This document shows, piece by piece, positions 3,470 through 56,520 of a DNA stretch of 64,000 bases. This DNA is from a virus. How positions within the stretch are numbered: position 1 is the stretch's first letter; every line of letters starts with the position of its first letter. The notes below the pieces were generated by a model that saw only the letters and a program-made list of their open reading frames with translations, searched no databases and was not told the DNA's origin. Where the stretch lies: the IMG/VR virus record IMGVR_UViG_3300017977_000066, positions 90,897-154,896 of that record; one strand, 5' to 3'. Position numbers and translations under genes: made by a program.

Positions 3470-4007
3470 ACGAGTTATAGCATTAGCAGCATATGCTAGA
3501 TGTGGTAAGAACTATGTAGCTTCTAAGTTAAAAGAAGTTTACGAACAACAAGGGTTAGTAGTAGAAGAAATAGCATTTGCGGATTCTTTAAAAACTATAA
3601 CAGCTGGTATAGTTGATGAGGATGTTACCATATTGGACACTATGAAAAATAATGATGAAAAGATTTGCATACATTATGAACAAGTGCTAGTTAGAGACAT
3701 GCTTACAAGAGTAGCAGCTGGTATTAAGAAGGTAGATGAAAGTTTCTTTGCTAGAGAGACTTTAACCAGGGTTAACAATTCTACTGCAGATATTATTATC
3801 ATAACTGACCTTAGATTCCTAATAGAAGAGGACATGCTTAAGACTAGTTATCCAGCATCTAAGATCATAAAGATAACTAGAGATAGTAAAGCTTGTAAAA
3901 AGAGATCTGGTGATGTAGAGGTAGATCTTTTAAAACACGATATGGTTTACATTAACGATAGTACTGTTAATATTGGTGAGCTTATAGCCAGTATAGAAAA
4001 TAATTAG
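3459..4007 (+). CDS. Deoxynucleoside monophosphate kinase (T4 gp1-like)
   Basis: P-loop AYARCGKN, AFADSLK, IITDLRF-x-x-E. Confidence 0.85.
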   Translation: MKDKRVIALAAYARCGKNYVASKLKEVYEQQGLVVEEIAFADSLKTITAGIVDEDVTILDTMKNNDEKICIHYEQVLVRDMLTRVAAGIKKVDESFFARETLTRVNNSTADIIIITDLRFLIEEDMLKTSYPASKIIKITRDSKACKKRSGDVEVDLLKHDMVYINDSTVNIGELIASIENN

Positions 4008-53300: not shown

Positions 53301-54014
53301 TTAGCTGTTTTTGTTTATGAAAGCTTCTATATACACTTTCCTTATATGGAAGTGTTGCACAGGTATGCTTGTAACATCTATATATGGCTTATATAGTTCG
53401 TTAACAGACTGAAGCATAGTCTCTATATCTTTTTCTTTTTTAACACTCAGAGGCTTCATAAGCATCGCTGGTATGTATAGTTTAGTTTCATTAGCCTGAC
53501 CATCCGATAACCCTATATGATATTCTAACCACTCCATGCCATCATACATGATCATGACATTATATTTGTTATCAGCATAGCTTAGAGTTAACTCAGTAGG
53601 TTTTAGATAGATGAACTCTATATTAACAAAATCGCTAAGAACACTTATGAAGATGGCATTGGCTAGTTGGTTCTTCATATGGTCACTTAGAGTATAAGGA
53701 TAAGTATTAACTTCTAATGTTACTACACCAGAGTCATTAGTCTCTATGAGCTTACTTAGTAACATATTAATCTCCACACTAGCAACCTCTAAGACATTAC
53801 TAGCGAATGACTCAGTCAGCTTAGTACTAAGATCTACATGTTTAAAATATGCTAATATATCATTAGAGAGATAGTCATACTCTTCATATACTCTGTTAAT
53901 ATAGTTATCATCACGAACAGCTCGTATAGCTAACTTCTTATCTAATAAAGCTATAGTAGTTAGTCTAGTATCTAAGACATCTCTTAACTCTATATATAAA
54001 GTACTGTTAAGCAT
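53301..54014 (-). CDS. Conserved phiKZ-like HAD-fold-like protein
   Basis: LYIELRDVLDTR, VNTYPYTLS, MYDGMEWL motifs. Confidence 0.65.
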   Translation of the reverse strand: MLNSTLYIELRDVLDTRLTTIALLDKKLAIRAVRDDNYINRVYEEYDYLSNDILAYFKHVDLSTKLTESFASNVLEVASVEINMLLSKLIETNDSGVVTLEVNTYPYTLSDHMKNQLANAIFISVLSDFVNIEFIYLKPTELTLSYADNKYNVMIMYDGMEWLEYHIGLSDGQANETKLYIPAMLMKPLSVKKEKDIETMLQSVNELYKPYIDVTSIPVQHFHIRKVYIEAFINKNS

Positions 54015-54023
54015 GGTTCCTCC

Positions 54024-54587
54024 TTAAAACTTATACAAGTTATTATTATTATTTTCTATCTCAGCTTCTACTAGTGTAGCATCTACATTATCAGTATCAT
54101 TCTTAAGATCTAGATACTCTAACATAAGCATCTGTTCTTTCCTAGTCATATTCATGAACTCTGTATATGAGATACCTGTAGTCTTATAGATATCTAGTCT
54201 GATGAAGTTCTCGAATAGCTCGAATGTATTAGCTATGTTAAATGATTCGAAGTTCTTAGAGTATTTAACTGTATCTAAGTTGTCTATATTACTAACCTTA
54301 TAACCTAGTATAACATTAGTTATTTTTTTATTTAGGATCTCTGCATCCAAGTAGCTACAATGTATTTTTTTAGGTAGCATTTTTTTAACATGCGATAAAT
54401 AGTTCCTGAAGACCTCTAATGGGTTCAAATCCATTAAAGATCTCATTTTTACTAGAACATGGTTCTTAACATCGTATTTATCAAAATGTTCGTGATAGAT
54501 GGAACGGAGCTTTAGATATCTGTCTCGCTCTCTTTTTCCTTTTGGTATCTGTCCATCACTTTCTCGTATCTCGAATGCAGTAGGATA
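54024..54587 (-). CDS. T4 gp51/tail-chaperone-T-like segment, probably translated by -1 frameshift from upstream gene
   Basis: GISYTEFMNMTRKEQMLMLEYL; frame open from slippery T7 to stop; no SD before ATG 54446. Confidence 0.7.
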   Translation of the reverse strand, partial: YPTAFEIRESDGQIPKGKRERDRYLKLRSIYHEHFDKYDVKNHVLVKMRSLMDLNPLEVFRNYLSHVKKMLPKKIHCSYLDAEILNKKITNVILGYKVSNIDNLDTVKYSKNFESFNIANTFELFENFIRLDIYKTTGISYTEFMNMTRKEQMLMLEYLDLKNDTDNVDATLVEAEIENNNNNLYKF

Positions 54588-56017
54588 AAAAAATACTCGA
54601 ACACCGCCAATGGTATAAGCTCGTGTTTAGATTGCGCTATATTACAAGACTCACATCTGAAGTTAGGTATACCTACTATAGATACTAAACTGTTATCTAT
54701 ATAAGCATGGATATCTGCTAAGAACTTAGTTCTAGTGTCATCGTTGCTAACCATGGTATTAAGAGCTTCTTTTATATCTTCTATAGAAGTAAGCTTAGCA
54801 TCGTCTATCTTAATGGATTTTATATAGTGGATATAAAGTTGTAGATAGTAAGATTTAACTAATAGCTCTTCAGCATCTTCTGGTTTATCTACATGAGTAC
54901 TCTCTTTAAGTATCTGATTAGCATTATGTCTAAGAGTACTGATAAAGTCTTTACCAGCTTCTAGATAGTAGCTTATATTAGGAGATTGGAAAGTAACATC
55001 TACTGTTAAAGATTCATCTTCATATGGTAATGTAAACGTCTCTATGACTTCACCGTTAGTAGGTAGTGTTTTCTGATACTCTATAACATCTTCTATAGAT
55101 ACTGTCTTAGGGTTAGTTTTGTTCATCTGCTGGATGTGTTTAGGAGTTAACTTAGTTAAGTCTTCCCACTGTAGTTCATCTAGAGCAAGCTTGACTCTTT
55201 TAACATTATTACAAGCCGGCTTACCATCTTTAAGCTTAGTGTCATTAGAGCACGGGATAACAGCATTAAAACCATTAGGGAATATACTCATAGCTATATT
55301 AATAGCGACTGCATTAACATCATTAATATGGATGTAATCTAGGATGTCTTGATCATCGCCTATATCTAAACTACTAGCTATTATCTTACCTCTAAAATGT
55401 TTGAAGATAACTTCTGTAAATATAACAGAGTAGTTACTAAATATCAGTGTGTTAGTAGCTTTACCTATACGAGTAAGCTCTTCAGTTATCTCTAACTCTA
55501 ATCTTAAGATCTCTTCGTCTGTAAGAGGAGCCATAGTAATATAGAAACCGCTATGCCATAATGCGATATTAACATGGCTACCAAGACCACTAGCTTGTTT
55601 AAGTTTAAGTAGCGCGGCTTTACCAGAAGATACTTTCTTATTAAACTTAAGAGCTTTAGAGTGTAAAGGTTTTTCACCATCTACTTTATTAGTGAAGCTA
55701 ACCATATCTTCACGATAACCAGTATCTTCACTCTCTATAAAACCTTTGTTGTTTCGTTGTAAGATGATGGATACCTGTTCATCTTCAGTTAGATCTTCTA
55801 GCTCTATGTCATCTACAGTGTCTTTGATAGTTTTTCTACTAGCAGATGGAGCTGGTCTAGGCTCTTTAAGTTTAGAAATCTCTTTAGCATCTATAGCCTC
55901 ACCATCATCGAAGACCTCTTCTAACATCTTCTGGTTCTCATCTTGTTCAGGAACCTCTTTAGCAGGAACTTCATTAACTACTTCTTCAGTAGTTTCTACT
56001 TCTTTTTTATCAGACAT
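54512..56017 (-). CDS. T4 gp26/tail-chaperone-G-like protein (phiKZ gp77-like)
   Basis: ALWHSGF motif; C-terminal RCESC...EYFF resembling gp26-family CxxC...FF. Confidence 0.65.
   Translation of the reverse strand: MSDKKEVETTEEVVNEVPAKEVPEQDENQKMLEEVFDDGEAIDAKEISKLKEPRPAPSASRKTIKDTVDDIELEDLTEDEQVSIILQRNNKGFIESEDTGYREDMVSFTNKVDGEKPLHSKALKFNKKVSSGKAALLKLKQASGLGSHVNIALWHSGFYITMAPLTDEEILRLELEITEELTRIGKATNTLIFSNYSVIFTEVIFKHFRGKIIASSLDIGDDQDILDYIHINDVNAVAINIAMSIFPNGFNAVIPCSNDTKLKDGKPACNNVKRVKLALDELQWEDLTKLTPKHIQQMNKTNPKTVSIEDVIEYQKTLPTNGEVIETFTLPYEDESLTVDVTFQSPNISYYLEAGKDFISTLRHNANQILKESTHVDKPEDAEELLVKSYYLQLYIHYIKSIKIDDAKLTSIEDIKEALNTMVSNDDTRTKFLADIHAYIDNSLVSIVGIPNFRCESCNIAQSKHELIPLAVFEYFFILLHSRYEKVMDRYQKEKESETDI
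54587..54608 (-). promoter_or_regulatory. -1 frameshift signal: GGCGGUG, 8-nt spacer, U UUU UUU
   Basis: Minus strand ttGGCGGTGttcgagtaTTTTTTTatc; heptamer in X XXY YYZ phase. Confidence 0.7.
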
Positions 56018-56025
56018 GATGTCTC

Positions 56026-56520
56026 CTATTTTTCTTCAGTAGGCTTTTCAGCTTCTTGTTTAGCAACTTCAGCTCTTATTAAACCTAATAGATGTGTCTC
56101 TATAGACTCGAATGTAGTTTGTATCTTCTCATGTAGGCCACTATAAGCAACTACTACAGTAACATATAGTTGTTGTTGTTTATCATCATTAACATCTACA
56201 TCACCTACATATGCGTTATAGGCAGTACTACCATTTTTTAATTTATTAGACTCACTGTGAGTACCTAAGATATTGATAAGCTCTTGCGAGTAGTCTGTTA
56301 GTGATTTTATAGCACCTACATAAGTAGTAGCGATCTCTCTATTGGACTCTATAATAGATCCAAAAGTCTCACCAGTATTTTTAGTTACATTTAGAGACTG
56401 TTCTAAAAAACCCTTGATTTCATTATACATAGATATAAGCTCATCCCACTTAACAACTTCTTTCTCATTGATAGCAGGAATCTCGATACCAGCTTCTTTA
56501 TTAACTTTATTCTCGGACAT
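56026..56520 (-). CDS. Hypothetical helical protein
   Basis: 164-aa ORF with SD TAAGGA. Confidence 0.7.
   Translation of the reverse strand: MSENKVNKEAGIEIPAINEKEVVKWDELISMYNEIKGFLEQSLNVTKNTGETFGSIIESNREIATTYVGAIKSLTDYSQELINILGTHSESNKLKNGSTAYNAYVGDVDVNDDKQQQLYVTVVVAYSGLHEKIQTTFESIETHLLGLIRAEVAKQEAEKPTEEK

Follow-up and report, generated by a model that had tools for sequence, protein, structure and literature searches.

Organization of the gp77 locus

The stretch of viral DNA analysed here (the window; 64,000 nucleotides (nt), positions 90,897 to 154,896 of the IMG/VR virus record IMGVR_UViG_3300017977_000066) carries on its minus strand a gene for a 501-amino-acid (aa) protein of the phiKZ gp77 family, hereafter gene A, followed by a 140-aa open reading frame (ORF). 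The two are probably one recoded gene, in which a programmed −1 shift at a run of seven T residues would yield a 664-aa fusion besides the 501-aa protein. Gene A is a member of phrog_4585 by profile match (Table 1). The downstream ORF represents part of what we call the B extension; it matches phrog_12109 weakly in the window, and 70 of 78 relatives match that family, with a best expectation value (E) of 4e-65. In phiKZ the counterpart of the locus is gp77, then PHIKZ076.4. The window is syntenic with phiKZ gp74–gp82, with the gp78–gp77–gp76.4 order matched, and also carries a DnaB-like helicase, a phiKZ-type major head protein, a polymerase, a virion RNA polymerase (RNAP) beta subunit and a DNA polymerase. 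On the basis of this synteny and of the phiKZ-type head, RNAP and DNA polymerase genes, the phage is phiKZ-like, as had been assumed in an earlier reading of the same DNA that proposed the frameshift (the original prediction).

At the proposed site the minus strand of gene A reads GAG TAT TTT TTT ATC CTA, and the plus strand correspondingly shows A7 at 54587–54593. Because the codons are TAT TTT TTT ATC, the T7 run forms an in-phase T TTT TTT at Y475-F476-F477, 24 codons 5′ of the gene A stop. The −1 frame begins after a TAA at 54627–54629, 13 codons 5′ of the run, and meets its next stop only at 54024–54026. It reads YPTAFEIRESDGQIPKGKRERDRYLKLRSIYHEHFDKYDVKNHVLVK and then enters the ATG-initiated 140-aa ORF; the predicted junction peptide of the trans-frame product is ...EYFFYPTAFEIR. 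Among the 47 codons between the T run and the ATG of the 140-aa ORF, none is ATG, GTG or TTG in the −1 frame, and that ATG has no sequence resembling a Shine–Dalgarno (SD) element within 16 nt. The overlap differs modestly in composition from the gene body, with a GC content of 0.42 versus 0.34 and 3 CpG in 72 nt versus 1.5 per 100 nt. The original prediction had named the in-phase heptamer, the −1 frame open to 54024 and into the 140-aa ORF, the ATG without an SD and the GC- and CpG-rich overlap, and the sequence of the window bears these out, the last to the modest extent given; its product sizes of 501 and ~664 aa are also correct (477 + 187 = 664).

Table 1 Features of the gp77 locus in the window
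Feature	Position	Strand	Evidence
Gene A (phiKZ gp77 family, phrog_4585), zero-frame product of 501 aa	54512..56017	-	ORF list; phrog_4585 E 2.8e-68
In-phase slippery T TTT TTT, covering the third base of Y475 and the codons of F476 and F477	54587..54593	-	Sequence
Dual-coding overlap, 24 zero-frame codons and stop; frame 0 ILLHSRYEKVMDRYQKEKESETDI*, frame −1 YPTAFEIRESDGQIPKGKRERDRY	54512..54586	-	
Linker 3′ of gene A stop; −1 frame open; no ATG/GTG/TTG, no SD	54447..54511	-	
ATG-initiated 140-aa downstream ORF; forms the C-terminal portion of the B extension (phrog_12109 family; phiKZ PHIKZ076.4)	54024..54446	-	
Whole stop-to-stop open −1 frame	54024..54626	-	
Predicted trans-frame product, 664 aa: A residues 1–477, then 187 residues	56017..54587, then 54587 to 54027	-	

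The −1 frame and the proposed slip site are conserved

The comparative set consisted of 120 related loci from metagenome and IMG/VR contigs together with six GenBank loci, including FLC9, AgentSmith, Kodama and phiKZ. About 115 loci have a complete gene A, and 100 are distinct once duplicates are removed; the counts below refer to these 100 unless another number is given. In all complete loci, among them the whole distinct set (100 of 100), the −1 frame runs through the gene A stop without interruption. It opens 2–73 codons 5′ of the T run (155 in one locus) and ends 123–190 codons past the gene A stop, and the +1 frame is shut within a few codons in most loci.

The T run lies at the same conserved xFF motif, 11–37 codons 5′ of the gene A stop. 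Of the 100 loci, 93 have T TTT TTN in phase, as T TTT TTT in 65 loci, T TTT TTC in 25 and T TTT TTA or TTG in 3; in the last group the second Phe has become Leu and the T run is kept. The in-phase heptamer thus has the X XXY YYZ form that permits P- and A-site re-pairing, both in the window and in these 93 relatives. The outcome that would have told against the original prediction, orthologues with no slippery site and with an SD and start of their own for the downstream gene, was not seen: the alignment it had called for returned the heptamer at the FF codons and the open −1 frame at the frequencies just given, and almost no SD. Two subgroups depart from the usual site. Three IMG/VR loci of a GC-rich subgroup (L110, L115 and L120; locus ~3580–3700) have lost the second Phe (VFT, VFS, VFI) and read TCG GTT TTT NNN, and two loci (L073 and L079) read CAA CTT TTT ATT, with a five-T run only.

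Codon choice at the motif was compared with background frequencies. Immediately 5′ of the two codons, 93% of loci have a T, though the residue it belongs to spans 12 amino acids and the third-position background is 34%; for the first Phe, 95% of loci use TTT, the background share of this codon being 49%. In 36 loci TTT makes up <35% of the Phe codons of gene A (0% in some), and most of these still hold the full T run. Since the T run is kept in such TTT-poor loci and in the Leu variants, and given the two excesses over background, the conservation at the site is, as read from these frequencies, one of nucleotides, beyond Phe-Phe alone.

The trans-frame region evolves as coding sequence

When the zero-frame tail was resampled synonymously with each gene's own codon usage, the −1 overlap stayed open in ~43% of trials per locus. 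Inside gene A, stops occur at ~12% of −1-frame codons. No locus has any in the stretch that separates the gene A stop from the first canonical start, the length of which has a median of 21.5 codons and a maximum of 141. Judged by these frequencies, an arrangement in which the −1 frame is open for 187 codons in the window and across the gene A stop in every locus is far beyond chance.

Alignment of the −1 products showed two conserved elements: a YP that follows the slip site and is retained in about two thirds of loci, and, shortly 3′ of the gene A stop, an H-x-x-x-x-F-G motif present in most relatives. In 84 of 98 loci no ATG, GTG or TTG lies 5′ of this motif. In 14 loci, phiKZ and AgentSmith among them, no canonical start occurs in the first 55–85 codons; the first 71 −1-frame codons of phiKZ lack ATG, GTG and TTG altogether. 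Almost none of the candidate B starts in the 98 loci has an SD, and the N-termini called for B are spread over profile positions 1–55 in the best 150 of 1868 matching clusters. The start-less linker was also compared between moderately related loci; over 11 such pairs, the differences at −1-frame codon positions 1, 2 and 3 numbered 66/45/139, with 92 synonymous and 83 non-synonymous codon changes. By these measures the start-less linker is evolving like coding sequence in the −1 frame, while lacking an initiation signal of its own, as would be required of a trans-frame region.

The zero-frame side of the overlap is conserved as well. The tail EYFFILLHSRYEKVM belongs to the predicted C-terminal helix of gene A, and its conservation alongside that of the −1 frame argues that both products are under selection. 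Within the clade of the window, the overlap keeps atypical codons (ATC CTA CTG CAT TC(G/A) ... TAC GAG) across 43–62% protein identity, which matches the dual-coding prediction.

No in-frame A–B fusion was found among the close relatives of gene A (449–517 aa) or in the best 150 of the 1868 B clusters, these 150 being all short, and a weak search of longer proteins also returned none. BFVD entries of 686–687 aa (phiEaH2, ctLnO19) were considered as such fusions and rejected, because phrog_8054 (693 positions) matches gene A at 298–652, which places their extra length at the N-terminus.

Proposed mechanism and alternative explanations

Based on these data, we propose a plausible mechanism for expression of the locus. 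Most ribosomes would read gene A in frame 0 to the stop at 54512, giving the 501-aa protein. We infer that a fraction slips one base back on U UUU UUU, where P- and A-site tRNA-Phe could re-pair with UUU. The slipped ribosomes would read YPTAFEIR..., cross the zero-frame stop and add 187 residues, so that the 664-aa form would share its first 477 residues with the short form and carry in addition a helical C-terminal domain. No signal beyond the slippery run itself appears to be involved, a situation also known from lambda G/GT and T7 gene 10. The joining of the two ORFs by a programmed −1 frameshift, the central claim of the original prediction, is strongly supported by comparative data.

Several points weigh against this proposal. 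Seven of the 100 loci have no perfect heptamer and read G TTT TTT (2 loci), G GTT TTT (3 loci) or A CTT TTT (2 loci). The combined products for openness over all loci, ~1e-60 for the overlap and ~1e-196 for the start-less linker, treat related loci as independent and are therefore overstated, and the case for the trans-frame product is comparative throughout. Neither of the usual stimulatory elements of a −1 site was found: folding of the 60 nt downstream gave a mean z of ~0 over 99 loci (−0.57 in the window), and SD-like elements upstream occur in 22% of loci versus 15% at control positions. The GGCGGTG that the original prediction had likened to the SD stimulator of dnaX does lie 8 nt 5′ of the heptamer in the window, but is not a conserved element, for which reason the efficiency of the slip may be low. 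A stimulatory element is not obligatory; lambda G/GT is not known to have one, and T7 gene 10 is not known to need a strong one. Finally, a messenger with one inserted U (UAU UUU UUU UAU CCU) would encode the identical protein, and on this point sequence cannot separate a slip of the polymerase from one of the ribosome.

Transcriptional slippage, in which phage or host RNA polymerase would add one U at the T7 run and normal translation would then give the same 664-aa fusion, is in our view an unlikely origin of the long form. It would agree with the conserved feature being a homopolymeric T run of 5–8, with the lack of any conserved SD-like stimulator or RNA structure of the kind common at efficient ribosomal frameshift sites, and with the use by phiKZ-like phages of their own multisubunit RNA polymerases. 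Runs of ~8–9 or more are required for a polymerase to slip efficiently, whereas 84 of the 100 runs are of 7 or fewer and 21 of 5–6 (length 5 in 4 loci, 6 in 17, 7 in 63 and 8 in 16); the run is never longer than 8, though greater length would favour stuttering. In addition, the in-phase X XXY YYZ rule fits 93% of loci, and three of the exceptions, G GTT TTT, resemble the ribosomal T7 gene 10 site. Because the runs are short and the in-phase rule is kept, transcriptional slippage is less likely, and the −1 shift is most likely ribosomal.

It is very improbable that A and B are two independent genes, with B translated from the ATG at 54446, from a non-canonical start or by termination–reinitiation, and with the open frame upstream having no function. 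All GenBank records examined annotate the two separately and none joins them, the ATG at 54446 does exist in the window, and unusual starts occur in the gp26 family, T4 gene 26 using an internal AUU start. That ATG has no SD, however, and equivalent starts are not conserved, as the scatter of called N-termini over 55 profile positions shows; 14 of 98 loci have no canonical start for 55–85 codons; and the linker ahead of any start is conserved as protein, with third-position bias. Reinitiation, moreover, needs neither a T run nor a −1 frame open 5′ of the gene A stop, yet that frame is open in every locus. An assembly or sequencing error, with the true gene a single 664-aa ORF or one with its stop elsewhere, can be dismissed as the source of the frame break: homopolymer runs are error-prone in some sequencing chemistries, but 100 distinct loci, phiKZ among them and drawn from many separate assemblies and isolates, share the same −1 offset, the protein sequence of the zero-frame tail is conserved, with a stop 11–37 codons after the run in all loci, and the searches described above, the one of longer proteins being weak, found no fused form.

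Comparison with known recoded genes

The recoding proposed for the gp77 locus is reminiscent of lambda G/GT. The lambda gpG/gpGT frameshift and the conserved −1 frameshift in the tail assembly chaperone genes of long-tailed phages were reportedly treated by Levin, Hendrix and Casjens in 1993 (cited in PMC8570332) and by Xu, Hendrix and Duda in 2004. A −1 slip a few codons 5′ of the stop of the upstream ORF yields two proteins in lambda, one short and one lengthened at the C-terminus, which share their N-terminal part; at the gp77 locus the same outcome is predicted from sequence. As in lambda G/GT and its relatives (P2 E/E+E′, Mu), no strong stimulatory structure appears to be needed and the arrangement is kept across very divergent phages; by analogy, a role in tail morphogenesis is likely here as well.

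The differences from lambda are considerable. Neither gene A nor B has sequence or fold similarity to G or GT: no Pfam or PHROG chaperone family matched either part, and the best Foldseek row labelled "tail assembly chaperone" had E 0.93. The products are of 501 and 664 aa here versus ~140 and 280 aa in lambda, and the slippery run is U-only, not G GGA AAG. Tail tube and tape measure genes do not flank the gp77 locus; its neighbours are homologues of phiKZ gp78 and gp79, a virion RNAP subunit and polymerases. An assignment of gene A as a lambda-type tail assembly chaperone gene was rejected on grounds of homology and of gene position. The comparison with lambda that had been drawn in the original prediction therefore stands for the two-product −1 geometry and fails for the placement of the locus, which is among polymerase genes.

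T7 gene 10 (10A/10B) undergoes a −1 frameshift at G GUU UUC. As proposed for gene A, this is a phage structural-gene slip on a U-rich run read by tRNA-Phe near the end of the ORF, adding a C-terminal extension, and three relatives in the gp77 family have G GTT TTT at the equivalent position. The T7 protein differs in being a capsid protein with a short extension, unrelated in sequence, and its frameshift is found in T7-like phages only, whereas the gp77 site spans a whole jumbo-phage lineage. E. coli dnaX (tau/gamma) has, as proposed for gene A, a −1 slip on a homopolymer-like heptamer. The dnaX signal consists of A AAA AAG, an upstream SD and a downstream hairpin, while at gene A no hairpin was found and the SD-like GGCGGTG is not a family feature; the dnaX shift truncates its protein, and that of gene A would extend it.

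Relationship of the two parts to T4 gp26 and gp51

A predicted structure of gene A (mean predicted local distance difference test score (pLDDT) 77, predicted template modelling score (pTM) 0.76) was compared with BFVD by Foldseek. Jumbo-phage orthologues came first, followed by about ten T4-like entries of 220–290 aa annotated as baseplate hub subunit, assembly chaperone or assembly protein (E 1e-5 to 2e-3), with template modelling (TM) scores of 0.42–0.55 normalised to target length, all of these being comparisons between predicted structures. Searches of the PDB with the model (Foldseek, VIA-align) gave no meaningful match, the best having Z 5.5 and covering helical fragments, and no gp26 or gp51 chain was among the matches; the gene A profile had no match among PDB sequences. 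Of 44 gene A members, one matched phrog_150 (E 3e-4) and one PF12322 (T4_baseplate) at E 0.018, which is below the cut-off and does not reach the family threshold. Direct alignment of gene A with T4 gp26 by hhalign gave a probability of 26%, over the C-terminal 40 columns only. There, CPxC...IPLDV..FFxLL of gene A is aligned with the extreme C-terminus of gp26, CPECGK...FFELL-stop.

T4 gp26 (208 aa) and gp51 (249 aa) are paralogues that both belong to PF12322 and phrog_150, gp51 having ~45 extra C-terminal residues. Together these results make it plausible that the gp26/gp51 superfamily has in gene A a distant and large member, although one that falls below the family threshold. T4 has a short protein and a longer paralogue, and the gp77 locus would give a short and a long form. 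Gene A is, by contrast, more than twice as long as gp26 or gp51, and T4 uses two separate genes on opposite strands; gene 26 has TTC TTT at the aligned position, no slippery run and no −1 ORF behind it. In the T4 sequence (gene 26, minus strand; L127:5803-5870) gp26 ends ...CPECGKTHAHVIRGLKEFFELL-stop, three residues past the FF that is aligned with the slip-site FF.

Cysteines 256, 269, 455 and 458 of gene A are invariant in close relatives and include the CxxC just before the slip-site motif, a pattern that suggests a zinc-binding site. T4 gp26 and gp51 each carry a CPxC.

The B part was modelled as a helical domain (pLDDT 80), and its Foldseek matches in BFVD were jumbo-phage orthologues only. 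A gp51-like identity for B was considered and rejected as unsupported: hhalign of the B profile with T4 gp51 and gp26 gave <1% probability, and phrog_634 was matched by 1 of 78 members (E 8e-4). The gp26/gp51-like pair of the original prediction is thus plausible in its upstream half, as a remote structural relationship carried by Foldseek and weak profile matches, and unsupported in its downstream half.

The gp77 family and its annotation

By tblastn, gene A matched 143 GenBank phage records, all at <30% identity and all from jumbo phages, with hosts in Pseudomonas, Serratia, Erwinia, Ralstonia, Vibrio, Burkholderia and Bacillus. Its 16 close relatives (449–517 aa, 33–69% identity; nearest 69% and 63%) come from metagenomes only. 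Megablast of the locus against GenBank phages gave no match, and a search of viral contigs for related loci with gene A as a single-protein query was also negative; a query with the alignment did retrieve loci. The B profile matched 1868 clusters of a library at 50% identity, and we put the B family at no fewer than 1,200 clusters at that identity, that is, at least 1,200.

Gene A is flanked in the window by a 164-aa gene (56026-56520, minus strand) and a 237-aa gene (53301-54014, minus strand), in an order that is kept in relatives. The former has the position of phiKZ gp78 and no family match; in FLC9, Kodama and AgentSmith, genes of 137–192 aa precede gene A. The latter belongs to phrog_3328, a family whose function is not known.

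In the phiKZ record, the 80-aa PHIKZ076.4 is annotated after a 219-nt gap (L125:7108-7327), and in SL2 (L124:7143-7467) and Churi (L126:3608-3932) only a 45-aa ORF is annotated, after ~320 nt (324 nt). This 219–324-nt "intergenic gap" that follows gp77 in Phikzvirus records has no stop in the −1 frame, in which it codes for the conserved N-terminal portion of B.

The gene A model also matches a 290-aa protein of Leptospira phage LE4 (E 3e-4), and a 71-aa LE4 protein, next to it in accession number, is matched weakly by the B model with E 1.7 (BFVD A0A343LED6/A0A343LED7). The range of the A–B pair may therefore include smaller, non-jumbo myoviruses as well.

Full-text searches of the literature on frameshifting in phiKZ, jumbo phages and Chimalliviridae, on gp77, on the hub and on chaperones gave no description of the site, in keeping with the statement in the original prediction that no report was known for this pair in phiKZ-like phages; subscription journals were largely uncovered, and an earlier report is possible. 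Where gp77 is mentioned there, the protein is that of another phage, namely a capsid decorator of Goslar, the small terminase of PCH45 or a virion RNAP subunit of PhiPA3.

Biological implications

In view of the analogy with lambda G/GT and T7 gene 10 and of the remote kinship of A to T4 gp26 and gp51, we propose that assembly of the tail or baseplate hub relies on cooperation of the short and long forms at a fixed ratio, B serving as an extra binding module. A bolder idea, which we hold tentatively and rate below an even chance, is that the gp77 pair is the jumbo-phage counterpart of T4 gp26 (short) and gp51 (longer): hub assembly in contractile-tailed phages would need both forms of one chaperone at a set ratio, as with lambda G/GT, and T4 would supply them from two genes, phiKZ-like phages from one recoded gene.

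If the frameshift operates as proposed, the locus is mis-annotated in every phiKZ-like genome record, the B domain being either begun at an internal ATG chosen arbitrarily or passed over as a "non-coding" gap. A simple annotation rule would follow: in phrog_4585 genes, the −1 ORF is to be joined at the T run of the xFF motif. That the frameshift has been kept while the proteins diverged to 20–30% identity would mean that both products, and probably their ratio, are needed, and it would provide a testable handle on the function of gp77. The few recoding events conserved in phage tail morphogenesis would also gain a second gene family, not homologous to the first, and the finding suggests an explanation for the two paralogous hub-assembly proteins of T4. 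The nucleus-forming phiKZ-like phages are intensely studied as therapy candidates and as a cell-biology model. Should gp77 and gp77–76.4 prove to be the counterparts of gp26 and gp51, the long-unexplained roles of the two T4 proteins would be linked to the G/GT principle, and the two forms would be unannotated, probably essential morphogenesis factors in every phiKZ-like phage.

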